DNA of 63,294 bases, the filler included, from Basidiobolus ranarum (Eukaryota), in the NCBI GenBank assembly GCA_040143965.1. It is 29 parts of 29 records of this genome, joined end to end, with 100 filler letters (N's around TTAATTAATTAA, not from the genome) between each part and the next. Parts side by side here need not be neighbours in the genome. Positions count along the whole stretch, not along the records: positions 4,391 to 6,485 come from JASJQH010010663.1; 28 more parts are not named here. One strand, given 5' to 3'. The notes under the pieces were generated by a model. The model was not told the DNA's origin. It did no database searches and saw only the letters and a list, made by a program, of their open reading frames with translations. The position numbers and the translations under genes were made by a program. Below, piece after piece: positions 2,196 to 54,577 of the stretch. Every line of letters begins with the position of its first letter. Position 1 is the first letter of the stretch.

Positions 2196-4290
2196 ATAAT
2201 GAGAATCAAAAAATACAAGAATCTTGTTGTGTTTAGTCTCTACATATGCACATACTCGACTGATTATACATAACTCAACAACATCAATAAGCTTTACCAG
2301 CAAACTGATGATGGAAACATTGCTAAACATCTGAAATTTTGAACAGCACTGACACTTTGCAAATAGCTGACTCTTGTTACCATTCACAATAGGAATAAGC
2401 TCCTTGATTTTGGCAAATTTTCATAAAGAATGCAGCCATGATATCCCCAACTTACAGCCAACAAATGTCCTGCCACAAGTAGATGTGTCTTTGCTGGAAT
2501 AGATTACCCCATGGCTAAAATGGTAATACTGCGTATCTTGATCTATCTCACCAAGAAGTCTGTCTTGCAGCTTTCCTAAAAATACCATCAGATCATCAGA
2601 CAAGCATATTAGTCGAATTATAGAGGTGCTTACTCTGTGTCCATGGATTGGGCTTTGTTGCTGTAATTGTGCTTAAACAATGCAAAAGCCCATGAGCATA
2701 TTGAAAAGAGCCCTTTATTGGAAGGTTAGTATAATCTGGAGTCTCTTTAACCCATTGCATTGCAACCATCACTGATTTTGCTGATAATTTATTAATCAGA
2801 TTAACAACTACTAATACTGATGATATCATACAGAGCATCACTTCACCACAGGTGAGCTCCATTGGGAACTCCCAGAATGTATAGTAAGGGCCTATAATCT
2901 CTAAGCATTGTGAAAGATGTAGTAGGGAATATAACAAATACCAGCATATATTCAGTCTATCTTCATTAAACCTGTAATAGAGTTATTCGTATCCAATCAC
3001 AAAATTGTTGCGCAGTCACTGCATCTACCTGAGATCTGCCAATGTGAGTTGATGTCATAAGAATATATTAACAATGTCAACAAACAACTTCTAGTGTTGC
3101 CAATATTTATTAGGCCAAAATCTTTTCAAAACTCCACTTGAATATATATAAATCCAGTATTTCAAGTCTTTGCATTTGAATAAACTCCTAGATGAGTGGA
3201 TATTGATTGGAGTCCTGGTAAAATATGATGGTATCTTGACATTTTCAAGCATTTTCCCAAGCAATTCAAACTTTGATCCTATCTCAAATGGCTCATTCCT
3301 ATTGAATTTTCCATTATATAGCTTAGTAAGTATTATTGAACTGTTGTTGAAGAGTAAGTGCATGGTGCCTAATGGGAAGCTCTGGCTCTAACTGATCCCT
3401 TTTAGCACTATAATCTTAGGCTTATGGCTAATACCAAGTTTAATGTTATACTGACTATTTGGTGAACTGATATCAAGGATCATATTGAGATCTGACTGGG
3501 CTCTTGATGGTAAAATCATGGAGTTTAGTTTCTATTTGGATAGTAGTAATGTGTATGCCCGATTGAGTAGACTTCATTGATTTGACAAAATCTATAGCAA
3601 GATAGGGCATTGTGCCCACAAACACCTCCAAGTTTACTGATGGCAGGAGTGTCACCAATACATATAATCATATTAGTTTTATTAAAATATTCACCCATCT
3701 GAAACCCAATAGATAGCAATTCATATTCTGCAATCAAATGCTCCAAGATGCTATCTATAAGCACTGGTGATTTAGGTCCAGATATGATGGATGGTATCAA
3801 AATATTTTGACTCTTATACTGTTCAGAAGGAGGAAGATTTAAGTTAATTAAAATTATTGGCCAGCAAGCCTTTCCAATCGTATATTTGTTTAGCAAGAAA
3901 CCATCCAGAGCCAATGCAAATGCATGATCATACATGTTCTCAAAGAAACCTTGACTTTTCAGATTCTGGTAGTGATATCCATCAAGTATATTGGTAATGC
4001 CATCAGCTTTATGGTCAGTATTTTGGCATTGGATTAATGATGTATATTTGAGTGATATCCTCAAAACTGTAAGGTGGGGAATCAACAGTATGTAAGCCAA
4101 ATATGAAAAATATTTACATGATTCAGTGATTGCCAATTGTGTGCAAACAGTACATGACTTCAGGTTTCTCAGATAACCAATGAAAGCCAAACAACCATTT
4201 GGACATGATGGTAGTTTAATAACTGAAGGAATATAAGTTATACAATTGACAAGTGTTTTCCACTTGTACCAGGTCTGTGGCAAGCAACAG
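2196..4290 (-). pseudogene. CACTA/EnSpm (Transposase_21/Tnp2-type) DDE transposase, frameshifted
   Basis: ORF 3525-4283 has CPNGC, LALDGF, WPIILINLNLPP, GPKSP and GDTPA motifs; downstream pieces (DPMHLL region, GPYYTFWEFPME) broken by stops and frameshifts. Confidence 0.9.
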
Positions 4291-4391
4291 NNNNNNNNNN
4301 NNNNNNNNNNNNNNNNNNNNNNNNNNNNNNNNNNTTAATTAATTAANNNNNNNNNNNNNNNNNNNNNNNNNNNNNNNNNNNNNNNNNNNNA

Positions 4392-4714
4392 GGATATCAG
4401 TCTCAGCAGAACCCTACAGAAGACAGTATGCTTAAGGAATTTTATTGTTTGAACTTGACATCACACACTTGGGAGAAACTCTATATCCACTCCAAAATTT
4501 GTGCCTTAGGCACGACATTTATAGGGTTGGTGAATGAGTTTGGCAATTTAATTTGATATACCAACAATGCCAATACTAGTTTTATTTACGATGTTGACAG
4601 CCAAATGTGGGTTTATCCTCCTAATGAAGCGCAACATCTTAGCACACAACAGCTTTTGGGTCAAATTACCAATGAGATTGGGTTTACAGCAAATAATTTT
4701 TCAACACAGAGTAC
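4392..4714 (+). pseudogene. Kelch/beta-propeller-like gene fragment truncated by LTR-like insertion
   Basis: Manual translation GYQSQQ...EFYCLNLTSHTWEKL...SFIYDVDSQMWVYP with in-frame TGA at 4554. Confidence 0.4.
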
Positions 4715-4996
4715 TGTTGAAAGTCTGGTGACTTGTGGTACAAGCAGTAATTCCCAAAGAGGAAAATATGGAGTATGGTGACTGCATCTGAACACAAAGT
4801 CTAAAGCCAATCAGTTGCTTGTATAGCTGAAATGCCAAAGTACCATACATTGACAGACTAGGTTAAGGTTCCCTAGTAATATAGGTATAGCATACAAGGA
4901 CTGGTAGCTCAGTGGTTAGAGCACCTTGCTAGAGTGAAGGAGGTCCCAGGTTCAATTCCTGCCCAGACCAATATTTCTCCCTAAATAATTTCAACA
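4715..4996 (+). mobile_element. LTR-like repeat carrying a tRNA-like gene (copy 1, complete)
   Basis: Perfect 8-bp terminal inverted repeat TGTTGAAA...TTTCAACA; homologous to 19735-19969. Confidence 0.7.
4898..4970 (+). tRNA. tRNA-like/pseudo-tRNA, 73 nt, nominal anticodon AGA with short variable loop
   Basis: GGACTGG/CCAGACC acceptor, GCTC/GAGC D-stem, CCTT/AAGG anticodon stem, CCAGG-TTCAATT-CCTGC T-arm; A box TAGCTCAGTGG, B box GGTTCAATTCC. Confidence 0.75.
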
Positions 4997-5253
4997 TTGA
5001 TCTATGCTATGACTGGAACCCAGCCAGATAGCTCTTTTGCAGTGGGAGTAGCCAGTCAACATGTGCAAAACCCAGGATCTAAGCATTATGCAGCAGTTAT
5101 GAGGATTTTCAGATATTTGAAGCAGACAATTGATCTGTCACTAAGATACACATCTTCTTATGAGAATCAAAATCTAATTGGGTTTAGTGATGCAGATTAG
5201 GGATGTGATAATAGGAACAGAATATCTATCACCGGATATACCTTTAACTATAT
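4997..5253 (+). mobile_element. Ty1/Copia RT-RNaseH junction fragment
   Basis: LIYAMTGTQPD...RIFRYLKQT...IGFSDAD*...SITGY. Confidence 0.9.
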
Positions 5254-6485
5254 CTCTAACAGAAATTTCAGAATTGTTATTGTAGGAAAAACGTCACAAT
5301 TTTAATCTATTTGGGATTGACAATTCACTTATCATCATAAAATCATCAAGTTAGATTTGATTTTAAACAATTTTTTCAGTCTCAGGAGAGAAATTCCATG
5401 ATCTTGCAAAATAGTTGCACATGAATGGCTACAATCTCAGAGAATTATGGATCAACATATGTGTGAAAAACATAACTCAAATTTTACACAATTACCACTT
5501 GAATGCTAATTTGTCACCTTCAAAATCTCTAGTCTCTTTGATATATTTTCCTGAATATTCTTATAGAGTTCTTCATACCCAAGATTTAGCTCATATCCAA
5601 CACAAGTTTGTATCAATATCTCCATCAAAGCCCACCATTGTATTAATGTTGATGAATCAACATTCTTCCAGCTATGTGGGAGATACCCTGAAATATTGTG
5701 CCACTCTGTATCAAGTTCTTCCCAGATATGTGCACAGTCAACACCAGAATGAATATCAAGTTGAATTTTCTTCTTCTGAAGCCACTTTCTGCATACTTGC
5801 ACTATGTTTTTCCCTTCATACTTTGGAGAATACTCCTCAAGCACTTTGACTATGTTTGTACATCCTTGTAATGTGACACTACTTAGGGTGCTTTGTGGTG
5901 TTTGTGTGTCTTTTTGCTTGCCTTTACATTTGGGGCTAATTTCAACACTTTGAAAAGTACCAGTTAATGTTGGAAAGCTGTGAGTTTTATTGGCTGGTGT
6001 TTTAGTTGTTGAGAGATGCCAGGTGTTGGATAAACTTCAAATTTAGCACTCTTCCGGCTGGTGTACCCAGTTCCATGGTGAAATTAAGATTTTTTGCCAG
6101 TATATCTAACTCTGGAAATGCAGATCTTTGTAATAGTGTGAAGAATTTGGTAAGTTGGCCAGTAGAGCCTAAACTCACTGGCTCCCTTGCTTTTCCCTTG
6201 AGTTTACTAACTTCCTGCTCCTTTAGTACTTCTTTAGTTGCTTTTCTTTCTTTTCCCAGTTGATAATTGCCTACATTTTTGAGATGGTTCATGAATAGGC
6301 CTATACTAGCCCAATTGCAATTTGCTTGCAAAAACCCAGGATAAGCCACATTAAATAAGTCAAGTACCTTTAGAGTAACACCTGGTTTTTGGTTTTTCCA
6401 CAATAGGCTCAAATCCAGGTAATTTTGGACAAGATTCCACACAGTTTCCAAAATATTAAACCACTCATCATCAGAGCAAGTGATG
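5254..6485 (-). mobile_element. CACTA terminus B with C-terminal part of accessory ORF2 (ORFs 5506-5844, 6002-6451)
   Basis: CTCTAACAGAAATTT terminus; ORF motif VWNLVQNYLDLSLLWKNQ...YPGFL...NWA recurs at about 9400-10230, 45050-45380, 58537-58660. Confidence 0.7.
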
Positions 6486-8779: not shown

Positions 8780-9395
8780 ATGTGCCTCAATTGAGAATCT
8801 CTGAGATGTAGGCAAAGTGTAGAGAGTGCTTTCCTCTGCTTCTTGTGAAAGGCAAGGATAGCTTCTGGTAGTCCCTTTGGCCCTATTTCTTCTTCTGTAA
8901 CAAATCCCTAAAGGTCCTTGTCTTCTGGATCCATTTGCATCTTGAACTTCCAAAGGTGAGAGTCTTCACCATCAAACTTCTCTGTGGATGCAAAAACGTT
9001 GGTAATCGTACTGGTAGACATTCCTTTAGCAGCTAGCTTGTGGCTCATAATCTGATAAAAGTGCTTAGGAGACTTGCAAGTGTTTTGGACAAGATTTAGA
9101 TTTGTGAATTAGATGCTTAAGTTTTATTGAATTGAATATCTCCTACTTATAGTTTATTATGATATAGGACTATTGGACATGCTTAGATCATAACAAACTT
9201 GCCTGTTAAATATGGGAGAAAATTTGAGGTGATTTGGTGAAGTTTTGAGAAAAAAGTGAAAATAGGTGAAAGTGATACTTCTATCAATTAGAGCAATAAA
9301 CACATGTTTTTGAATGCCAGAATGGAGTGCTAAATAATCAGAATATGCATAAACTAACTACTAAATAATGAGTTGCTATTTACCGCATTTCAACA
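8780..9395 (-). mobile_element. Copia 5' end: LTR (family L3, 9053-9395), PBS 9041-9052, gag N-terminus
   Basis: TGTTGAAAT...TTTTATCA LTR then GATTATGAGCCA; gag FASTEKFDGEDSHLWKFKMQM; near-identical gag piece at 17350-17446. Confidence 0.8.
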
Positions 9396-15357: not shown

Positions 15358-16047
15358 TATATGGCTACCTCTGCTACTACACAAGAAGCTATGTAGTTAA
15401 GGAAGTTATTTACAGACTTAGGATACATGCAAAAATATGCTATTGCTGTATTTGAAGATCATCAAAGTTGTATTTTATTACCTAAAAACCAAACATTTTG
15501 TCCTAGAACAAAACATATAGATATTAGTTACCATTGTGTTTGAGTAGCAATAGAGAATGATATAATTGAACTTGTTTGTTGCCCTACTGAAGAAATGATT
15601 GCTGACATCTTAAACCAACCAGTAGCTAAAGCGCAATTTGAATTATCAAGGTAAAGTTAGGTGTAAGAGAAACACAAAATAATTAGTTCAGTGGGAATGT
15701 TGAAATTAGGTAAATAGCAACTCATTGATGAGTAGTTAGTTTGTTTGTATTCTGACTATTTAGCACTCAGCTTTGCCATTTAAAATGTGTGTTTATAGCT
15801 ATAATTGATAGAAATATCAATTAGATCACTTTTATCAATTTTCACTATTTTCTCAAAACTTCTCCAAATCACCACAAATTTTCACCCATGCTTAACAGGC
15901 ATGTTTGTTATGATCTAAGAACATCCAATAGTCCTTATTCTTAGTAAACTAAAAATAGGACATACTCAATTCAAAAATTTGTAAGTGTCTAATAACAAAT
16001 CTAAATCTTGTCCAAAACACATACAAATCCCCTAAACACTTTAATAA
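15358..16047 (+). mobile_element. Copia 3' end: RNaseH, PPT (15685-15697), LTR family L3 from 15698
   Basis: RTKHIDISYH...MIADIL; AGTTCAGTGGGAA followed by TGTTGAAATT. Confidence 0.85.
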
Positions 16048-19634: not shown

Positions 19635-19734
19635 NNNNNNNNNNNNNNNNNNNNNNNNNNNNNNNNNNNNNNNNNNNNTTAATTAATTAANNNNNNNNNN
19701 NNNNNNNNNNNNNNNNNNNNNNNNNNNNNNNNNN

Positions 19735-19969
19735 AAAAATATGGAGTATGGTCACTGCTTCTGAATACAAAGTCTGAGGCCAATCAGTTGCTTGTATAGC
19801 TGAAATGCCAAAGTACCATACATTGATAGACTAGGTTAAGGTTCCCTAGCAATATAGGCATAGCATACAAGGATTGGTAGCTCAGTGGTTAGAGCACCTT
19901 GCTAGAGTGAAGGAGGTCCAAGGTTCAAATCCTGGCCAGAACAATATTTCCCCCTAAATAATTTCAATA
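19735..19969 (+). mobile_element. tRNA-carrying LTR-like repeat (copy 2, 5' end lost in gap)
   Basis: Colinear with 4762-4996, ends TTTCAATA, abuts a Copia integrase. Confidence 0.7.
19871..19943 (+). tRNA. tRNA-like/pseudo-tRNA copy 2
   Basis: GGATTGGTAGCTCAGTGGTTAGAGCACCTTGCTAGAGTGAAGGAGGTCCAAGGTTCAAATCCTGGCCAGAACA. Confidence 0.7.
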
Positions 19970-21822
19970 GTCCCTTGACTTGATTAGCCACTTGTTTTCA
20001 TTGTCATACAGTCTGTACCCTTTTGTCCCATAACAATATCCCAAAAAAGACATTTCTGGCTTTTTATGGTTTAGGTTTGAACTCATCACATCTGGAATCA
20101 TTGCATATACAGTACTTTCAAAGACTCTGAGATCAGCCACATCAGGCTTACTTCCAAACCAAGCTCGATAAGGTGTCATAGCCAATAGAGACCTAGAGGG
20201 ACATCTATTCTTAATATATATGGCAGTTGCAACCAATTCAGCCCAAAACTGTTTTGGTAAATCTTGAACATGAAGCATTGATCTTGCCTTTTCCATTATT
20301 GATCTTTTTGCACATTCTGCTACTCCATTCTGCTGTGGAGAATATGGCACTGTAGTACACTGTTTTTACCCATGTGTTGAGCACAAGTTAGAGAAGAGTT
20401 TTGATTTATATTCCCCTCCATCATCAGTACTGATGATTTTAATCTTTAGACCTATTTCAATCACCACCATTGCTTTAAATTTCTTGAAGATATCAAAGGC
20501 TTCATCCTTACTGGCCAGAAGGTACACCCTAAAATACTTTGTCTTATCATCAATAAAGGTCATAAAATACCTTTTTCCCCCTGAGGATTTTGTCTGCATT
20601 GCGCCACACAGATTTGAGTGTATCAGGCCCAATTTTTGATCATTTTTGCTAATTCCAGAGCCCACAAATAGCTCTTTGTGTTGCATACCATATAGGCACC
20701 TTCACATACCTCCAGATCCAGTGGAATTACAAAATTTGGTCCCAAAACCATCTTGTTTTTGATTAAATTTCTCATTTTTTCAGCTCCTAGATGACCCAAT
20801 CTCCTATGCCAGATTTTCAGGTCTTTTCTCTTCGGCTGTGGCAGTATTAACTTGTTCATATATTTGCCTAATATAATGAAGTTTATACAAGTTATTTGCT
20901 TAGCTACAGAAGCTATGTAATTCCCTTTTTGATCTCTGATTGTACAGCTATTTTGATCAAAATTAAAGCTGTATCCCTCTGATGTAGCTTTACTTGCTGA
21001 TAACAAATTTTTTGCTATTGCCGGCACATATAGCATGTTTTTCAGTGTCAAATACATGTCCCCAGAGATGCCCCCAAGATCCACTTGAATCTCTCCCACT
21101 CCCAGTGCTTCTAGTGGCTGTTCAACTCTCATATAAACCTTCTTGTTTATGTCAGTTTTGAGTGTCTTAAACCAGTTTTTTTGATTAGAGTAATGTTGAT
21201 AGGTTCCAGAATCAATATACCAGAGCCTACAGTCTTGTTCAGAGGTCACTGATAGGGCAGAAATGAATAAAACTTCCTCTTTGATTGAAACCTGATTAGC
21301 TTGTTCCAACTTCACATTTTTGTTGTAATTTCTTGATTTGCAATCTTTTAACTGGTGTCCTGGCTTGTTATAACCATAGCATAAACCTGGTGTCTTTCTG
21401 TTGTAATCTTTGTACTTGCTAAAGCTACAGTTTCCAGCTCCAAAAAGAGCCACTTCCTCAGATTCTTTTTCAAAATTCTTACTTCTGAGGTGTTGATCCA
21501 TCAGCCTTGCTATTGTAAACTGCAAAGATAACTTGTCAAATATTACTTCCAGAGCTGTGACCAAGTTTGAATACTGCTCTGGTAGACTACTTAGAAGAGT
21601 CATAATGACATCTTCTTCCTGTATAGCTGTGCAAATATTTTCCAATTGTTTTCCCAAGATCTCACATTTGCAATGTGAGTAACCATGCTTTCAGACTTTT
21701 CCATCTTTATATTGAAGAATTTTTGTCTGAGAAAGAGTCTATTAGCAAAGCTTGTTGCTTCATAACACTCATCCAATATAGTCCAAGCTTGATGGGAAGT
21801 CTTTGCATATTGAATATTCACA
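19970..21822 (-). mobile_element. Copia gag-protease-integrase, frameshifted
   Basis: LLSSLP, WYIDSG, WHRRLGH, IHSNLCG, FIDD, TDDGGEY, PYSPQQNGVAE. Confidence 0.95.
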
Positions 21823-23369: not shown

Positions 23370-24010
23370 TATTGGGAAAATATGGGCTGTTTGGAGGAAC
23401 TTGAGAAAAGTGGAGTTGTGAATAGCTTTGTGAGATAATTGTTTATTGTCCAGAAATAAAGCATTTATACTTTTTGGTGGAAATACAGAAAACTAACACT
23501 GGGGTTGTGTTCAGAACATCTGTGGGAGTAAAATGAGTTATTTCTGGGGCAATTTGGACGAGTTTGAAATTTCCAATATGTAATTGCTAATTCTCACATA
23601 ATTCACATATATATAAAATATATGTTCCAATTTTCAGCTAAGTGATATTTGACTAAATAATGTTGACTAACTAATATGTGATATATGAAATAGTTAGGTG
23701 TATAAAGATAGGGATAACATATATGATAAAGACAATAAACTTCAACACTCCCACTCAACTAAATATTCATATATCTTAATCCTAACTTAAATCTTAATTC
23801 TTCAAATTTTGGTTTTGGTAATGGTTTGGTAAGGATGTCAGCAATCATGTCCTCAGTTGGACAGTACTCCAGTTGGACGTGCTTATTCTCAATAGCTTCC
23901 CTAACAAAGTGATGTTGAATATCAATGTGCTTACTTCTAGCATGAAATTTGGGATTTTTAGCTAAAGAAATACAACTTTGATTATCCTTAAAAATTATGG
24001 TGGGTGAACT
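23370..24010 (-). mobile_element. Copia 3' end (RNaseH, PPT 23748-23760, LTR family L2 23370-23747) nested in preceding RT
   Basis: KHIDIQHHFVRE..MIADILTKP; AGTTGAGTGGGAG-TGTTGAAG; same LTR at 35039-35373 and 38460-38837. Confidence 0.9.
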
Positions 24011-28483: not shown

Positions 28484-29355
28484 GTTCAAGTGTTCTTGAT
28501 GCCACTTTGTGTTGAAACTCCACGTTATCTTGTATCAAGAGGGCGTCTTGAAGAGGCCAGAGCTGCTTTGGTCAAATTAAGAAGTGGATACGATGTTGAG
28601 GCTGAATTCGAAGAAATCGTTCAAGCTCGTGAGGCCGCTAAAGATCTTCCAAAGAGTCTTGGTTTTGGGGAAATCATGAAAGATCCCTACTGTAGAAAGA
28701 ACTTCTTCATTTCAATTGGTATGAGTCTCCTCCAACAATGGTCTGGAATCAACGGCGTCATGTACTACTCTACCTCTATCTTTACCAATATCTACGGTGA
28801 TACTGCTAAATATGTTACTGTTGGTCTCTGCTGTCTAAATGTTGTGATGACCATCATTTCCGTTGCTCTGATCGATCGCGCTGGTAGAAAGATTTTATTG
28901 CTTGTCTCCAGTGGCGGTGCAGCTATTTTCTGTGTTCTCATGTGTGTCGGACTCCAAGTACCCAGTAATGGTCTAACTGTCGCAGCCAGTAAGTGTTCAT
29001 TCTATTTCATTGTTCCATATTAATTTCCACTAATCCTCTTCCGTTTAAAGTCATGATGTTTGTTGGATCCTTCGCCATCGGTCTTGGTTCGATTCCTTTC
29101 CTCATTATGAGTGAATTAATGCCTACCAACGCTATTTCTACCACCACCAGTTTCACCCTCACAGTTAATTGGTTATCTAACTTCGTCATCGGCCTCATTT
29201 TCCCCACTCTCTCTGATGTTATGAATGGCTATGTCTTCATCATCTTCGCTTCATGCTGTGCTTTAGGCTTCTTAGGAGTTCTTTTCTTCGTCAGAGAAAC
29301 CAAGGGAAAGAGTATTGAAGAGCTGACTGCGGGAAGTTACAGTAACAAGAACTAA
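28484..29355 (+). CDS. MFS sugar porter, 3' fragment; intron 28989-29050
   Basis: VETPRYL, QQWSGINGVMYY, IDRAGRK, SELMP, VRETKGK; GTAAGT...CTAAT...AAG intron restores the frame. Confidence 0.95.
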
Positions 29356-31289: not shown

Positions 31290-32360
31290 CCAGTCTTATT
31301 AACCTTATTAGTAAATGACCTTATTTTAGCAACCAATTACTTGAAGTCTTTGGATAATAACATCCTGCTTATCTACTGATTCAAAATTCCTGATATTGGT
31401 AAACTGATGCACTATCTTCAGGTCCAGGTTAAGAAAGACAGAACTACCAAAACAATAACTTTAAGCCAGTCTAACTATATCAAAGATATACTGTGGAAGT
31501 TTAAAATAAAAGAATGTAATCCAGTTTCAATCCCAATGGAAAAAATGTTAACTTGACCAAAAATTGGTTTAAACAGACATACTACACCATTAGCTAGACA
31601 GAAATTTGAGAAATTTAGAACCTTTATGGGATTAGTTTGTACAACTATTTAGTTGAGGGAGAGTGTTGTAACTGACTTTGCCAAAACACCAATATAGTCA
31701 TATATAGCTTGAGTTATCTCATATTTCCCTGAAACTTTATCTATTTTCTGTGTTGGATTTTACTTAGAATATTTTTACTAAGTTAGAAGTTATCAGATAT
31801 ATGGATTTTTCAAACTAGTGCTAGAAGCCACAAACTTTGCACACATGTTTATGGGACCTTTCTTTACACATTCTACGTAGTGGTTTGCTTACATCTTGAC
31901 CACATACTAAATGTCTACTCACTGCTCAGTAAATGAATAAGTGAACACTATCAATATTTCTAAATATCCAATTCACTTTTGACAGGTTTGCTGATGCTTT
32001 GACAGAAAGTACAAAGAATGCAAGCTAAGGGCTCATAACCTGCTATATTATCTGGGATCCTATTGTGAGTGGCATGGAGAATTAGAGAAATTGGTTATTT
32101 TCACTTATTGATTAGAAAGCTGACATTTATACTTTTGTTGATATGCAAACAACCTCAAGTGCAGATTGTGTTAAGGAATGTCCTAGGATCAGGTGTGAAA
32201 AGTTTGGGCTTATGTCACAAGCTTGAAAATCTATTTGTTCTGGGAGCTGCTAGCTTGAAAACATATTCCAAGTAAATACAAATTAATAATAATAGGTAAT
32301 ATCACAGTGAAGTACTGAATAGCTAAACTCTTTGGCATTTATGACTATATATGTATTAGT
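31290..32360. mobile_element. Copia mosaic: RT fragment, PPT, L1-like LTRs, PBS at 32029-32040 (-)
   Basis: AGTTGAGGGAGAG-TGTTG PPT/LTR junction; GGTTATGAGCCC next to LTR end. Confidence 0.75.
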
Positions 32361-35038: not shown

Positions 35039-37122
35039 GAGTTGTGAATAGCTTTGTGAGATAATTATTTATTGTCCAGAAATAAAGCATTTATACATTT
35101 TGGTAGAAATACAGAAAACTAACACTGGGGTTGTGTTCAGAACATCTGTGGGAGTAAAATGAGCAATTTTTGGGGCAATTTAGATGACTTTGAAATTTCC
35201 AATATGGAATTGCTAACTCTCACATTATTCACATATATAAGTAATATATGTTCTGATTTTCAGTTAAGTGATATTTGACTAAGTAATGTTAACTAACTTG
35301 TATGAGATATATGAAATAGTTAGGTGTATAAAGATAGAGATAATAAATATGATAAAGACAATAAACTTTAACAAGACCTTTATAGGGAGGTTTCCCATAG
35401 CCTATAAAGCATTTTTCTTTATTCTTTTCATTGGATCCCAATTTGTGTAAATCTTAATCTGGAAGTCTGCCAAATACATGATTTAAGGTCAAATTTTAGG
35501 TTCTTGATTCCAAAGACATTACTAGGCTCTGTAACCTGCATGGTAGGCTATTCAGGAATGTAATTCTAATCTCTTGATCAGTAGTTGGTACTCCACTGCA
35601 TTCCATTGCATCCACTAAAATAATGACTTTGTTAATTAGTGATTTAATACCTTCTCCTGGCTTCATCTTAAACTTGAAGAATTGTCTTCTTAGAAACATC
35701 TTGTTGGCAGCAGAACATGCTTAGTAGATATCTTTCAAGGCTTAGCATACCTTCTTGGCAGCTTTAGCTCTTGAACATTGAGTTAGCAATTTGCCTCTAA
35801 CATTAAGACAAATTGTTTTAAAGGCACATTGTTCTTTTTCTACCTTGAGTGAGACTTTTGTTTCAGATAGTTTTGCACTGTTTTCTTCTCCTACAACAGT
35901 GTCCCAAAGTCCTTTTTCTTGCAGCAGCTTTATCATTTTAATTTTCTGAACTTGATAATTGGTTTCATCCAATTTTTCAATAGAGGGAAAACTTCCATAA
36001 ATTTGCAAAGTAGACAATACAGAGAGAGCAAGCACAGGGCTCAAAACCTGTTAAAGAATTTGGGAGTCTATTGGAAGTGGTTTGAAGAATTAGAGAAATT
36101 GGTGGTTTTTGCTTACTTATTTATCAAGTATTCAGATGATATTTCTAGTTTTGTCAAGATGTACACAAACTAACATGTAAATGTGTTAAGGAAGGTCCCA
36201 GGAGAATGTGTGCAAAGGTTGGGGCTTCTAGCACAAGTTATCAAAATCTACATATCTGAGAACTGTTATAGTATTTGTGAGCCTGCTGGAAGTGGTTAAG
36301 AGAATTAGAGGAATTGGTGGTTTTCACCAATTGATTTATTGAGGAGAAAGTTAACATTTATAGTTTTGTCACAATGTAAACAATCTAACATGTAGAATGT
36401 GTTAAGGAAGGTCCCAGGAACATGTGTGCAAAGTTTGGGGCTTCTAGCACCAGTTTGAAATATCTGTATATCTGAGAACTTCTCAGTTGGTAAAAATATT
36501 CTAAGTAAGTTCTGATCGAGAATAATTGATAATATCTTTGTGAATTACAAGATAACTAAGTACTAAGTTATATATAACTATATAGGTGCTTAGGCAATGC
36601 TAATTTCAACACTCTCTCTCAACTAAATAGTCATATAAACTAATCCTAATAAAGGTCTAAATTTCGCAAATTTCTGTCTAGCTAATGGTTTGGTTAATAT
36701 ATCAGCAATCATGTCTTCTGTAGAACAATAAGTTAAGTCAATAAACTTATTCACTATAGTCTCTCTGATGAAGTGATGCTTAATATCTATATGTTTGCTT
36801 CTATTATGAAATGTGAGATTTTTAGCTAATTTGATACAACTTTGATTATCTTGAAATATTTTAGTTAGTGAATTTTGAGAATAACCCTAATGTGTTAAGA
36901 AACATCTGATTTGAGCCACTTTTGGTCTAGTTAAGATTTGTCTCCATTGGGGTAGATACTGGATTATATTCTTCCATTATAAACTTCTTTAGTATATCTA
37001 TGATATACTTAGACTGGTTTAAAGTTATTGTTTTGGTAGTTCTATCTATCTTAATTTTGTGTAGGCAGCTCTATCTATCTTAATTTGAATTCCAAGATAG
37101 TACATCAGTTCACCAAGATCAG
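35039..37122 (-). mobile_element. Nested Copia cluster: L2 LTR, gag (35374-36044), PBS 36037-36048, tandem L1 LTRs 36049-36611, RNaseH/RT
   Basis: IEKLDETNYQVQKIKM...EKGLWD gag; GGTTTTGAGCCC; SKHIDIKHHFIRE. Confidence 0.9.
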
Positions 37123-37222: not shown

Positions 37223-39306
37223 TGTTGGCTTCTTTGTTTCAGTGTCAGAATCTGTGCTTTCTTTTTCAGAATTTCTTCTTCTTCATCTGGTTGACCTAAT
37301 TCCCAGACATGTTTCCCTTCAGCCACAAGTTGCATCTTGAATTTCCATTCATCGAAATCTTCCCCATTGAATGTTGGAATATTAGTAATCTCCTTTTGGA
37401 AAGAAGACTTTAATTCACTTGCTGCTACCCTGCTGGAGGATCTTGACATAATGGAAGAAATAAGTATCCGGTTGTAGATCTCCTGTCTTCAATCTCTCTT
37501 TGCCAATTTGCATCTGAATATCCCATCATATCAAAGTTTGATCCAGAATATGTGTATTTTAAGCACATATCCATAGTATCTTTCTAATATCTGATAATCT
37601 GCTTAACTACTGTGATTTGATCATATCCATAATTTTGAAGATATTGGCACATAACTCCTGCAGAATATGCAATGTCTGGCCATGTTCCATCCATGATACA
37701 TATTAAACTACCAACCATGGATTGATAAGGAAATTTCTGGCTTTCGTTCAAATCCAAAAATGTCTGATTTGTGCCATTTTTGGTCAAGTTAAGATTTATC
37801 TCCATTGGGGTAAATACTGGATTATATTCTTCCATTTTGAACTTCTTTAGTATATCTAGGATATACTTGGACTGGTTTAAAGTTATTGTTTTCATAGGTC
37901 TATCTATCTTAATTTGAATTCCAAGATAATACATCAGTTGACCAAGATCAATCACTTTGAATCTGTCAGATAAGTTGGATTTGGTTTTCTCCAGGGTCTT
38001 CAAGTCACCAGTTGCTATAATAAGGTCATCTAATAATAAGGCTAATAAGACTGGGCTTGTCTTATCTGGCCTGAAGTAGATATTACAGTCAGCACTACTC
38101 TTTTGGAATTAGACTGTTTCCAAAAAAGCATCAATATTGCTATTCTAGACTCTTGGAGAATATTTCAAGCCATAGAGTGTTTTCTGAATCTGCAAACATT
38201 TTGAGGAATTTCTGGGTCCACAAATCTATCTGGCTAGTCCATGGAGATCTCCTCAGCAAGCTCACCATCTGAAAAAGCAGTTTTAACATCAATTTGATGT
38301 ATAATAAACTAATATTTAGCTGAAATTGTTGAATTTAGCATGGCCTAAACACCTATATAGTCATATATAGCTTAGTACTTAGTTATCTTATAATTCACTA
38401 AGATATTATCCATTATTCTCAATTAGATTTTACTTAAAACATTCTTACCAACTTAGAAGTATTGGGAAAATATGGTCAGTTTGGAGGAACTTTAGAAAGG
38501 TGGAGTGGTTAATAGCTGTGTGAGATAATTATTTATTGTCTAGAAATAAAGCATTTATACATTTGGAACAAAATACAAAAAACTAACACTGGGGTTGTGT
38601 TCAGAACATCTGTGGGAGTAAAATGAGCTATCTTTGGGGCAATTTGGCTGAGTTTGAAGTTTTCAATATGGAATTGCTAATTCTCCCATTATTCACATAT
38701 ATATACAATATATGTTCCGATTTTCAGTTAAGTGATATTTGACTAAGTAGTGTTAACAAACTTATATGTGATATATGAAATAGTTAGGTGTATAAAGATA
38801 GAGATAACAAATATGATAAAGACAATATACTTCAACACTCCCACTCAACTGAATATTCATATATCTTTATCCTAACTTAAATCTTAATTCTTCAAATTTT
38901 GGCTGCAGTAATGGTTAGGTAAGAATGTCAGCAGGCATGTCCTCAGTTGGAGAGTGCTGTAGCTGGACATGCTTATTCTCAATAGCTTCCCTAACAAAGG
39001 GATGTTGAATGTCAATGTGCTTACTTCCAGCATGAAATTTGGGATTTTTAGCCAAAGAAATACAACTTTGATTATCCTTGAAAAATATGGTGGGTGAACT
39101 TTGAAAAATGCCCAGGTCTTTGCACAGTTTTCTTAACCACATAGCCTCCTTTGTTGTATGTGATGCTGCCATGTACTCTGCTTCAGTTGTTGAAAGTGCA
39201 ACAGTGGGTTGCTTCTTGCTACTCCAAGATACAGCTGCTTCACTATAGAGAAAAGTATATCCAGTGATAGATCTTGTGGCCTCAATATCAAGTCCCCAAT
39301 CTGCAT
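37223..39306 (-). mobile_element. Nested Copia cluster: gag start, RT, L1 LTR piece, L2 LTR, RNaseH
   Basis: IPTFNGEDFDEWKFKM; DLGQLMYYLGIQI; VALSTTEAEYMA; SKHIDIQH. Confidence 0.9.
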
Positions 39307-48135: not shown

Positions 48136-48681
48136 CACTACTGCAGGCCAGCAAAAGATGGTAAGCTCATTAGGAACAGTATCCCAAAGAATGCCAAGTG
48201 TCTTGGCCACGTCTTCAGGAGTACGGATACTGCCTACCTGGGTAAACAAGCTCCTAATGGGGCTTAATCCGGACTTCTTAATGAGAGCGAGGTCCAATCC
48301 CGATGTATAGAAATCCCCCAGCAAAGTATGAGTGGTTGAATTTCCTGCTTTTGCTATGGTAGTCAAAAGATAGACTAAGTTCTTTTGGCTAAGAACCGAC
48401 ATGGTGCTCCAGATAGATTCATCGCTAGGGAGAGTAGTGTTCCTAATCCAGTCATAGTTGGTATGAAAATAGAAGTTATCAGTGGAGCTTGGGGTGGTAA
48501 GTCTTGGGTGTGCACTGAACCACCAGGGATAATATAAGAAATCGGAATTTCCAAGTTTATGTAAATAGTGGTAGGGAAGAGTAAGTTCGTCAACCAATGA
48601 ACTCATGGTCGAAAACGATGATACGTATATGCTGAGATGACCATTGGCTGAAGGAGGTTGGAAATCCAAATTAAATGCCAA
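48136..48681 (-). CDS. M13 (neprilysin/endothelin-converting enzyme) metallopeptidase N-terminal region, possibly pseudogenised
   Basis: DNFYFHTNYDWIRNTTLPSDES...LGDFYTSGLD...GLSPI; in-frame TAA immediately upstream of the ORF. Confidence 0.7.
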
Positions 48682-49271
48682 AGATACCGATTACAGCAAT
48701 TCTTCAGGTAACGTTTGAGAAGGATTTGGTGATCCACTCGGAAGCTGATGTGCATCATCTAGGATGAGCCTAACTTGAGCAACCCAGCATCAGTTCTTGG
48801 GAAACATATTCACAACATAGTCCCTAGGTACGATATCTGAAATGCTTCGGGAAGTGTGAAACCTACATATCATTTTTCGTTAGTCGCTTCTTAATTAGCC
48901 CTAATCGTACTAATACCTTAGCTGAATGCATTGCTAATTCCAATTATGAGCATGGTCAAGATGCAGCATTCATATATATTAAACCACTCGAGTGCCCTAA
49001 GAAGGATTAACTTTAATCTTTGACTCATTCACTTAGTGCATAAATCTTGAATAGGTGCAATTTCCAAGTGTCAGGTTTTAACTTGTGATAATAACTTATC
49101 AAATCTGGTGACATCGATAGTGTGCAGAAATAGAGCAGCAAGATAAAGCTCTAAGATTGGAATAATATGTGGGTCTGGTAGCTTGGTGGTATAGTCTATA
49201 TATTTGCTAACCTGAGTATAGAAAGGGCAACTTCACTATTCTATATGTTTTCATAGTGATCAACCTTTATT

Positions 49272-49599
49272 TGTTAAAGTATTTGGGTGCCTGTTGGAAG
49301 TGGTTTGGAGAATTAGAAAAATTGGTGGCTTTCACTTATTGATTTATTGAGTAGAAAGTTGACATTAATAGTTTTGTCAAGAAGTAAACAAACTAACATG
49401 TAAAATATGTTATGAAAGGTCCCCGAAACATGTGTGCAAAGTTTGGGGCTTCTAGCACAAGTTATCAAAATCTATATATCTTCAAACTTCTAAGTAAATT
49501 CCTCATGAGAATAATGGATAATATCTTAGTGAAATATAAGATAACCAAGTACTAAGCTATATATGACATATAGGTGTTTAGGCAATGCTAATTTCAACA
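49272..49599 (-). mobile_element. Solo LTR (Copia L1) with 5-bp target-site duplication
   Basis: TTATT|TGTTAAAG...TTTCAACA|TTATT. Confidence 0.9.
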
Positions 49600-50966: not shown

Positions 50967-52397
50967 TGTTGAAATTGACATAGCCTAAACACCTATATAC
51001 TGATATATAGCTTAGTATTTAGTTATTCAATATTGAAATGAGATATCACAAACTATTTGAAATCCGAATTTACTGAGAACATTTTGAAAACTTGTCTTAG
51101 TAGCCCCAAACTTTGCACACATGTTCCTGGGACCTTCCGTGACACATTCTAGACGTATTTGCTTACCCAACCATAAATGTCAACTCAACAAATCAACAAG
51201 TGAAAACCATCAATTCTTCTAGTTTGAAAACCACTTTCAACAAACTCCCAAAATACTTCAACACATATATCCTATATAATTATCAGTTTCATTTTGCCAC
51301 TGGATGTTATTGTGACTGTTATTAAGAGAAATTTTGAGAAGTTTTGAACATTCACTATGAAAAGCATGCTATATGAATCACTTTGGGCATAATACTAATA
51401 TCTTAATAGAAGCAATTGTTAAAGTATTTTGGGAGCTTATTGGAAGTGGTTTGTGGAATTAGAGAAATTGGTGGTTTTTACTCATTGATTCATTTAATTG
51501 AAAGTTAACATTTATAGTTTTGTCAAGATATTAACAAACTAACGTATACAATGTGTTAAAGAAGATCCCAGAAACGTTTGGGTAAAGTATGGGGCTTCTA
51601 GCACAAGTTTGAAAATATATATATTTGAGAACTTCCAAGTTGGTAAAAAATACATATATCTGAGACTTCTAATTAGGTTCCTCATGTGAAGAGTGGGTAA
51701 TATCTTAGTGAAATATTAGATAACTAAATAATAAGCTATATATGACTATATAGGTGCTTAAGCAATGCTAATTTCAAGAACTATGGCTGGTGGTATTTTG
51801 GGTTCAGTAGTATTAAAGTATTTTGGGAGTAATTAACAGTGATTCGGAAAGCTAGAAGAATTAGTGGTTCTTCACTTACTGATTTATTTTGTTAAAGAAT
51901 TTGGGAGCCTGTTGGAAGTGGTTTGGATAATTAGAGAAATTGGTGGTTTTCACCAGTTGATTTATTGAGTATTCAGTTGACATTTTTAGTTTTGTCAAGA
52001 TGTAAGCAAACAGATATGTATAATGTGCTAAGGAAGGTTCCAGGAACATGTGTGCAGAGTATGGGGCTTCAAGCATATGTTTGAAAAATCTATATATTTG
52101 AGAACTTCTGAGTTGGTAAAAATATTCCAAGTAAGTTCCAATAGAGAATCATGGGTAGTATCTTAGTTCAATATTGGATAACTGAATACTGTTAAAGTAT
52201 CTGGGAGCCTGTTGGAAGTGGTTTGGGGAACTAGAGAAATCGGTGGTTTTCACCAGTTGATTTATTGAGTTGAAAGTTGACATTTATAGTTTTGTCAAGA
52301 TATAAGCAAACCAACGTGTAGAATATGTTACGAACGGTTCCAGGAACATGTGTGCAAAGTTTGGGGCTCCTAGCACAAGTTTGAAAAATATATATAT
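50967..52397. mobile_element. Cluster of at least five L1 LTR copies or fragments
   Basis: Starts at 50967 (+) and about 51417, 51811, 51890, 52190 (-). Confidence 0.85.
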
Positions 52398-53299: not shown

Positions 53300-53546
53300 A
53301 TTAAGTATACACAGAATATTTTTACCAACCTAAATGTTCTCTGATATATATATTCTTCAAACTTGTGCTAGAAGCCCCAAACTGAGCACACATATTCTTG
53401 GGACCTTTGTTGACACTTTCTACGTGTTTGTTTGTTTACATCTTGACTGTAAACATCAACTTTCAACTCCATAAATCAATAAGTGAAGAGCACAAATTCT
53501 TCTAGTAGCCAAACCACTTCCAACAAACACCCAAAATACTTTAACA
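53300..53546 (+). mobile_element. L1 LTR fragment upstream of the AAD gene
   Basis: ...CCACTTCCAACAAACACCCAAAATACTTTAACA. Confidence 0.75.
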
Positions 53547-53750: not shown

Positions 53751-53914
53751 AGGCTTTACCAATGGATTCGGTTGCTTTATGATTTCGGCTAAATGGAAGG
53801 ATTTTTATTCCTGAATATACCTCCTATCTAAATCCGCAGTACTTTGGATTGAAAGCAGACGAATATAAATATCTTCGCGATAATGCTCATTAGACAACAA
53901 TACAAACATTCATT

Positions 53915-54577
53915 ATGGCTGAACTATTCGCACCTGCACCAGAGCCTTCCACCGAGCTTGGACGCTACCGCATCCTTTCGTCCACTGCTGGTATTCGTGT
54001 TTCACCACTACAGCTCGGGGCAATGTCTATTGGTGATGCCTGGTCCCAATTCATGGGTTCCATGGATAAAGCAGCTTCTTTCAAAATGCTCGACGCTTAT
54101 TATGATGCTGGTGGAAATTTTATAGATACCGCTAATAACTATCAAGAAGAGCAGTCCGAGACATGGATTGGTGAATGGATGGCCCAGCGTAAGAATCGAG
54201 ATCAGGTGGTTATTGCAACCAAGTATACTACATACTATAAACATCATCAGCTGGGCAAGGGAGGAGCACCAAACCACTGTGGTAACCATAAGAGAAGTCT
54301 TCACATGAGTGTTCGTGATTCCTTGAGCAAGTTACAGACTGACTGGATTGATATTTTATACATTCACTGGTGGGACCATACAACCTCAATTGAGGAAATC
54401 ATGGACAGTCTCCACATCCTTGTACAACAAGGCAAAGTTTTGTATCTTGGTGTCTCTGATACTCCCGCTTGGATTGTCAGTGCTGCGAATACCTATGCTC
54501 GTGCTCATGGTAAGACACCATTCAGTATTTATCAGGGCAGGTGGAATGTCATGAGAAGGGACTTTGAGCGCGAGATT
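53915..54577 (+). CDS. Aryl-alcohol dehydrogenase / NorA-type aldo-keto reductase, 5' fragment, intronless as far as seen
   Basis: [57 protein letters not shown]. Confidence 0.95.

Follow-up and report, generated by a model that had tools for sequence, protein, structure and literature searches.

Introduction

[quoted passage not shown] Helenus elements are TRIMs whose LTRs carry a tRNA-derived sequence and which, together with Cassandra and Ajax, have been termed TRIMp3 (Kojima 2024, PMC10886601). Here we analyze a 282-bp unit at positions 4715-4996 of a 63,294-base stretch of DNA from Basidiobolus ranarum, referred to below as the window, which has the termini of an LTR and contains a tRNA-derived module close to its right end. 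An initial annotation of the same DNA suggested that the unit might be a novel tRNA counterpart of Cassandra; the suggestion of novelty does not hold, because such elements have already been published as Helenus.

In the portions of the Helenus paper and its supplement drawn on here, a whole element of 311-1263 bp is described as two LTRs around a short non-coding interior with a primer-binding site (PBS) plus a polypurine tract (PPT) (PMC10886601). Among the supplement rows considered, LTRs are 106-284 bp and interiors 75-354 bp long, and many families are represented by LTRs only. The printed fungal LTRs start with TGTTG, end with ..ACA and carry the tRNA-like sequence in sense near the 3' end: that of Helenus-1_HemVas lies at 24-95 of 116, and Helenus-2_PTrit-LTR ends ..gagtaatttcaaca, by our count about 27 nt past the module. 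Fungal Helenus internal parts start ggttatgagcccag. The fungal hosts named are Pucciniales and three Agaricomycetes, where Helenus makes 5-bp duplications and is thought to be mobilized by Copia. Its copies swell the number of tRNA predictions such as Ser-AGA and Thr-AGT, with hundreds in rust fungi, and its use of Pol III is inferred in that paper (PMC10886601).

We read the B. ranarum unit, with a probability of about 0.55, as the LTR of a Ty1/copia-dependent retroelement family with a tRNA-derived module, of the Helenus type ('TRIMp3'). Both copies would have come to lie within older copia elements, either as solo LTRs or as 3' LTRs.

Results

The unit has LTR-type termini and contains a tRNA-derived module

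The features of the two copies of the unit are as follows.

4715-4996, plus strand: LTR copy 1, 282 bp, 5' TGTTGAAAGTC ... AAATAATTTCAACA 3'; plus is taken as sense from the match to published Helenus LTRs
4715-4722, plus strand: terminal TGTTGAAA, inverted repeat of the opposite end
4805-4814, plus strand: CCAAT-box-like AGCCAATCAG, read from the sequence and the same in both copies
4898-4970, plus strand: tRNA-derived module of 73 nt with AGA at the anticodon position and a short variable region (ARAGORN, Rfam)
4905-4915, plus strand: A box TAGCTCAGTGG, the same in both copies
4949-4959, plus strand: B box, copy 1 having GGTTCAATTCC and copy 2 GGTTCAAATCC
4971-4996, plus strand: 26-nt tail ATATTTCTCCCTAAATAATTTCAACA, which includes the LTR terminus and has no run of four or more T (T4+)
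4989-4996, plus strand: right terminus TTTCAACA
19735-19969, plus strand: LTR copy 2, ending ...TTTCAATA, its left side cut by the boundary of an assembly piece
19871-19943, plus strand: tRNA-derived module of copy 2 (ARAGORN; Rfam, 41.7 bits)

In the whole window, ARAGORN identified two tRNA-like genes, at 4898-4970 and 19871-19943, both called as Ser(aga). The Rfam tRNA model, with a gathering score of 29, matched them with 50.1 bits (E 9.5e-08) in copy 1 and 41.7 bits (E 1.9e-05) in copy 2. The consensus of the A box is TRGCNNAGTGG and that of the B box is GGTTCRANNCC, and the B boxes of the two copies differ only at 4956, an N position of the latter. ARAGORN, Rfam and the box sequences therefore agree on the 73-nt cloverleaf with A and B boxes that the initial annotation had placed 26 nt before the right end, and the module is present in 2/2 copies. 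The tail that separates the end of the module (4970) from the end of the unit (4996) has the same final 11 nt as the printed Helenus-2_PTrit-LTR consensus.

Serine tRNAs carry a long variable arm, so the module, with its short variable region, cannot be a working tRNA-Ser. The stability of the cloverleaf is ordinary, 146/200 shuffles folding at least as well, and there are mismatches in 3/4 stems. As counted from the Rfam alignment, 18/21 stem pairs form in copy 1 and 17/21 in copy 2, and the stem changes between the copies are non-compensatory. Folding of the whole unit is likewise unremarkable (z 0.47). A second decayed tRNA-like sequence or other small-RNA head was not found in the left part of the unit (Rfam, 4600-5100), and there was no 5S rRNA match: Rfam retrieved nothing but tRNA, whether from 4600-5100 (E up to 10) or from the window (E up to 5). 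A sub-threshold Rfam match to the 'Plastid-ycf2 5'UTR' (untranslated region) lies opposite the module at 4898-4971 on the minus strand (27.6 bits against a gathering score of 65.7), and it looks like a mirror image of the tRNA match rather than a plastid element.

The window consists of 29 assembly pieces of about 2.1-2.2 kb each, slowly decreasing in length. Its 56 runs of 44 N pair into 28 linkers of the form N44-TTAATTAATTAA-N44 (for example, 4291-4390 and 19635-19734), and distances and neighborhoods across linkers are therefore meaningless. Copy 1 falls in the piece that spans 4391-6485, and copy 2 in the one that spans 19735-21822. Positions 4763-4994 of copy 1 align with 19736-19967 of copy 2 with 94.0% identity over 232 nt (E 2e-100), and in an ungapped comparison of the copies 15/234 positions differ. 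The similarity ends at the same right-hand base in both copies, and the flanks beyond are unlike, so that the shared right boundary reported initially for the second copy stands. Its left end is only the point at which an assembly piece begins: a linker immediately precedes 19735, and copy 2 consequently gives no information on the left end of the unit. In copy 1, the proposed 282-bp unit and its termini were recovered, with TGTTGAAA at 4715-4722 and TTTCAACA at 4989-4996.

Three further properties bear on what kind of repeat this is. The right ends do not vary and neither of the two copies has a poly-A tail; homology does not extend past the right end; and, as first noted, the unit contains no T4+ run after the module, the first TTTT beyond the LTR end being at 39 nt in copy 1 and 26 nt in copy 2. 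Exact-pattern scans of metagenome contigs (2 patterns) and of viral contigs (2 patterns) returned 0 loci each.

The termini are those of Ty1/copia LTR families in the same window

The window has 20 occurrences of the octamer TTTCAACA or its complement, where 7.1 +/- 2.6 would be expected; 0/100 shuffles reached this count, and several such 8-mers sit at the ends of other repeats. Three families of such repeats are compared with the unit here.

36264-36611, 49272-49599, 50967-51263 and others: LTR copies of fam2
9053-9395, 15698-16047: LTR copies of fam3
38460-38837, 23370-23747: LTR copies of fam4

These three families are demonstrably true Ty1/copia LTRs with fixable orientation, because PBS, PPT and pol C-terminus are seen next to the LTR in them. 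A copia pol C-terminus (..PTEDMPADILT*PLLQPKFEELRFKLG*) on the minus strand near 38850-38960 directly precedes a TGTTGAA end, and a purine tract, GAGTGGGAG, GAGAGAGAG or AGTGGGAA, lies between pol C-terminus and TGTTGAA in the copia families of the window. A GGTTATGAGCCC-type PBS is found directly past the 3' end of the copia LTR at 32029-32040 (minus strand, exact), 36037-36048 (minus strand, 1 mismatch) and 9041-9052 (minus strand, 2 mismatches). The genome's copia elements thus seem to use a truncated-tRNA primer, as do rust-fungus copia and Drosophila copia. The solo fam2 LTR at 49272-49599 has a clean 5-bp target duplication, TTATT on the plus strand, which is AATAA in the orientation of the element.

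A few details of these families were recorded in passing. The PBS-like sequence at 36037-36048 on the minus strand reads GGTTTTGAGCCC. Within the fam2 LTR at 36048-36611, the segment 36048-36264 is 81% identical to 36263-36480, a partial tandem duplication. The fam4 LTRs at 38460-38837 and 23370-23747 are each preceded by a pol C-terminus and purine tract. Copy 2 of the unit ends ..CAATA, and both fam4 copies likewise end ..TTTTCCCAATA, not ..CA.

The families (36264-36611, 9053-9395, 38460-38837 and relatives) share the termini TGTTGAA... and ...TTT(C)AACA with the unit. The ends of the unit were compared with those of seven LTR copies of the three families. Among 2000 random 282-nt segments, at most 0.1% scored as high as the unit, in either orientation, and since its ends are far closer to copia LTR ends than are those of random segments, we accept the unit as an LTR. 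The likeness is confined to the ends: the copia families are alike along their whole length, whereas the unit resembles none of them past the ends. They have TATAAAT and/or AATAAA and no tRNA-like sequence, in contrast to the unit, and fam2-fam4 LTRs are 300-380 bp long compared with its 282 bp. Decayed tRNA-like remnants in other LTR families were also considered, after a MAFFT alignment hinted at a likeness in the T-arm region, and were rejected: nhmmer gave no match there below E 60, and Rfam, at E up to 5, added no tRNA to those already identified.

Both copies adjoin copia coding sequence

The sequences beside the two copies contain the following features.

4997-5257, plus strand: decayed pol fragment of Ty1/copia type, in sense (..LIYAMTGTQPD..GFSDAD..TGYTF), forming the right flank of copy 1
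19970-21690, minus strand: copia gag, pre-integrase and integrase SH3-like domain (Pfam), antisense to the unit, right flank of copy 2
4691-4706, plus strand: 16-mer AAATAATTTTTCAACA, 8 nt before the unit, resembling the last 14 nt of the unit

The right flank of copy 1 was matched by tblastn to the window's own copia paralog (35/87 identities, E 1e-18); the 71-aa pol fragment found no match in a word-indexed protein search. Beside copy 2, the junction truncates the SH3_retrovirus domain: at the end of the open reading frame, positions 1-63 of the 73 in the profile are matched. The same frame also has Pol_BBD, Retrotran_gag_2 and gag_pre-integrs.

On the left of copy 1, positions 4691-4722 read as AAATAATTTTTCAACA followed by CAGAGTAC and TGTTGAAA, and the 16-mer forms an 8-bp stem with the first 8 nt of the unit. 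Beyond the 16-mer, no similarity of 4391-4706 to the unit was found, and this neighboring stretch has no other copy in the window. On its minus strand it is LTR-like, with TATAAAT (position 184) and AATAAA (positions 121 and 261). The 16-mer is probably the terminus of another LTR beside the unit and not a target duplication, because the 14-mer of copy 2 is bordered by another flank, and the ends of other LTR families are alike. Close LTR ends, opposite or tandem, also occur elsewhere in the window, for example at ~31960-32040.

A simple insertion of the unit into a contiguous copia pol with a 16-nt duplication was rejected, since in tblastn with the copia paralog pol is confined to the right-hand side of the unit, and the left side yields no high-scoring pair better than E 0.19. 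Nor does pol continue to the left by other measures: Pfam detected no RVT_2 on three stop-masked frames of 4391-4722, and tblastx of 4391-4714 against the window gave nothing below E 0.24. As 4391-4714 is not a continuation of the right-hand pol, copy 1 is not simply a solo LTR within pol. A likeness of the sequence ahead of the unit to the pol C-terminus/PPT region of the other families was considered as well, and it was not significant.

Orientation of the unit

The ends of an LTR are inverted repeats and do not tell the strand. The unit lacks TATA[AT]A and AATAAA on either strand of either copy; in 5/7 of the other LTR copies, AATAAA is found at a distance of 75-77 nt from the 3' end. Its plus strand has no T4+ run and two runs of three or more T (T3+), and its minus strand has one TTTT and eight T3+ runs, compared with 1-5 T4+ runs in sense in 7/7 of the other LTR copies. 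Among random 282-nt strands (n=16,661), 15.9% have no T4+ run and 4.5% have two or fewer T3+ runs. The plus orientation, with the module in sense, is favored on indirect grounds, at roughly two in three, because it gives the Helenus layout in sense, Pol II-type signals are lacking and T runs are few on that strand. With no TATA or AATAAA signals, a unit read from the minus strand would have no promoter of any kind.

Other content of the window

Most pieces of the window are transposon debris, with Pfam matches to copia gag, Pol_BBD, pre-integrase, integrase SH3-like, RVT_2 and tnp2 transposase domains. Amid the debris are host gene fragments, namely aldo/keto reductase, sugar transporter and the M13 peptidase N-terminal domain (Pfam).

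53894-54577, 28484-29020, 48136-48687 (minus strand) and 3528-4289 (minus strand): the host gene fragments and a tnp2-type (CACTA-like) transposase (Pfam)
53894-54577: aldo/keto reductase fragment (Pfam)

The reductase fragment, across 87% of its length, matches P0006, a 202-aa B. ranarum protein, with 100% identity, and its best full-length relative, at 91%, is named Basidiobolus meristosporus. The same piece also holds an LTR-family copy (53313-53546), so the repeats and the reductase come from one genome.

Discussion

Points that weigh against a Helenus-type LTR

Several observations weigh against reading the unit as a Helenus-type LTR in the plus orientation. Two copies were available for analysis (n=2), and the left end of the unit is known from copy 1 only, together with its resemblance to the starts of other LTRs. 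The initial proposal of an LTR/TRIM family stands insofar as the unit behaves as an LTR, its ends matching three demonstrable Ty1/copia LTR families; as to its TRIM part, neither ~2.1-kb piece contains a second copy of the unit, and neither strand has a PBS after or a purine tract before either copy. The proposed 5-bp target duplication is not present at copy 1, where AGTAC on the left stands against TTGAT on the right, a comparison that applies to copy 1 as a solo LTR and not as a 3' LTR or recombinant. Differences between the copies are no rarer inside the tRNA-like part (5/73) than elsewhere (10/161), and these equal rates, with the non-compensatory stem changes, give no sign of selection on the module.

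The orientation scores are slightly higher for minus. End scores were 6.0 (5') and 6.0 (3') for plus and 8.1 (5') and 7.3 (3') for minus, and comparison of the whole LTR with the seven oriented copies gave 899 (plus) and 927 (minus), with shuffles at 849 +/- 34. The whole-LTR test recovers the orientation of 7/7 control LTRs (for example, 913 vs 651), and with scores this near to those of shuffles the body of the unit is not detectably related to the window's copia LTRs. The avoidance of T runs is weak evidence, in that 36% of shuffles of the unit also lack T4+ runs. Lastly, TTTT stands just after the module in the Helenus consensus LTRs examined, whereas the unit has TTT only.

Competing explanations

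It is possible, though we do not think it probable, that the unit is an LTR from an ordinary copia family driven by Pol II, or from a large derivative that is non-autonomous, rather than from a miniature TRIM, and that the tRNA or short interspersed nuclear element (SINE) fragment is a passive passenger without a role. According to the part of the Helenus paper used here, 'not a few' Repbase LTRs hold tRNA-like parts and only some of them are TRIMs (PMC10886601). The even spread of differences between module and remainder would be expected of such a passenger, a short interior is not seen in either piece, and the sequence upstream of the module includes a CCAAT-like box as well as TAATATAGG, which is weakly TATA-like. 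However, TATA[AT]A and AATAAA are missing from both strands, in contrast to the majority of the window's LTRs, the two boxes are intact in 2/2 copies, and the layout is that of the published Helenus LTRs considered.

An unlikely alternative is that the sense strand is minus, which would make the tRNA-like sequence antisense, place it 26 nt from the 5' end of the LTR and leave it unable to promote the element. The end and whole-length scores are slightly higher for minus, yet the gaps are within noise (z 1.5 vs 2.3). The neighboring 16-mer on the minus strand, followed by the LTR-like TATAAAT and AATAAA, is a direct repeat of the right end of the unit and would suit this orientation. Set against it are the published Helenus LTRs examined, which have the module in sense near the 3' end, and the minus strand itself, where TTTT and eight T3+ runs occur and neither type of promoter signal does.

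A tRNA-derived SINE or another retroposon mobilized by long interspersed nuclear elements (LINEs), occupying 4707-4982 with a 14-16-nt target duplication AAATAATTT(TT)CAACA, is very improbable. The 16-mer at 4691-4706 and the 14-mer at 4983-4996 do form a direct repeat of the size made by LINE machinery. However, copy 2 has the 14-mer beside a different flank, so that the 14-mer belongs to the element, and other LTR families end in the same motif. The tRNA-like sequence is at the 3' end, preceded by at least 135 nt of shared sequence that a Pol III transcript could not include, and there is no A-rich or simple-repeat tail. We give next to no weight to the idea that the unit is a miniature DNA transposon whose terminal inverted repeats are 8 bp long, or that it stems from segmental duplication or is an artifact of assembly, despite the perfect 8-bp inverted repeat at the ends and the short unplaced contigs from which the pieces derive, because there is no matching target duplication of 2-9 bp at 4714/4997, the flanks differ immediately past the right end, and the same termini are found on LTRs that adjoin PPT, PBS and pol.

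A possible mode of propagation and its implications

If the unit is a Helenus-type LTR, its intact A and B boxes would recruit Pol III, by analogy with Cassandra and Helenus. Transcription would start at about 4898 in the 5' LTR, pass the 26-nt tail, where there is no T4+ run, and continue into the PBS and a short non-coding interior. Copia proteins acting in trans would then reverse-transcribe the RNA and integrate the product by way of the shared termini TGTTGAA...TTTCAACA. What the sequence shows is the anatomy; the strand of the unit, its TRIM structure, Pol III transcription and mobilization in trans are what we infer. If it is an active Pol III gene, the module could also draw Ty1-like copia elements to integrate upstream of it and thereby give rise to nests of LTRs; the 16-mer that resembles an LTR terminus is 192 nt upstream of the module.

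That a Helenus-type, Pol III-promoted LTR element resides in the early-diverging fungus Basidiobolus, far from the Basidiomycota that host the known fungal Helenus, is a claim we regard as decidedly doubtful. Were it true, miniature elements dependent on copia would have captured a tRNA independently once more, arriving at the same architecture, in which about 26 nt separate the module from the end of the LTR. Alternatively, the Helenus lineage would be much older, or more mobile between fungi, than thought. The host range of TRIMp3 may accordingly extend to early-diverging fungi, which bears on the repeated origin of such elements. The kind of element and the working proposed for it are already in print, and no new question is opened. 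For annotation, there is a practical warning: the two 'tRNA-Ser(AGA)' calls in the window are retroelement LTRs and not tRNA genes.

Comparison with SINEs, Cassandra and Helenus

Like SINE2 elements, the unit is a short non-coding repeat that includes a tRNA-derived module and its A and B boxes. It differs from them in that this module occupies the 3' end instead of the 5' head, shared sequence of at least 135 nt preceding it in both copies (183 nt in copy 1), and in having the TG..CA inverted-repeat termini common to LTRs and no tail repeat. It probably depends on the proteins of LTR retrotransposons and not on those of LINEs. With Cassandra it shares an LTR that carries an internal Pol III promoter sequence that originated in a gene for a small RNA. 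Cassandra, as far as described in the sources used, differs in its plant hosts, 5S rRNA source, conserved terminators and experimentally detected transcripts, whereas the B. ranarum unit is known here from sequence alone.

The relationship to Helenus was also approached through exact words of the unit sought in the consensus file of the supplement, a look-up without alignment in which lines are wrapped at 70 nt, so that words across line ends are missed. Within that limit, 6/8 words from outside the D-arm, GAAGGAGGTCC, TGTTGAAAGTC, TTGCTAGAGT, AATAATTTCAA, TGTTGAAAG and CCAATCAGTTG, had 0 matches in the file. The other two, AATTTCAACA, which is the end of Helenus-2_PTrit-LTR, and GGTTCAATTCCTG, had 1 match each, and of the D-arm words GTAGCTCAGTGGTTAGAGC had 1 match and GCTCAGTGGTTAGAG had 23. 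The host differs as well: Basidiobolus, Zoopagomycota and Mucoromycota are absent from the text of PMC10886601, and our literature search, covering sources in part, found no report of Helenus-type elements in Basidiobolus.

The likeness to the published Helenus elements considered is otherwise extensive. The unit has A and B boxes in 2/2 copies and its module lies tens of nucleotides from the 3' end; it starts TGTTG, copy 1 ends ..ACA, and its length falls inside the published 106-284 bp. It gives rise to a Ser-AGA call whose structure does not fit, and its genome contains copia partners with a PBS that corresponds to tRNA-iMet at its anticodon loop (GGTTATGAGCCC). Having matched none of the published Helenus consensus sequences that could be searched, it probably represents a new family in a new host lineage, and it fits the description of Helenus, as far as that was available, in all respects examined, including the PBS type of the surrounding copia elements.

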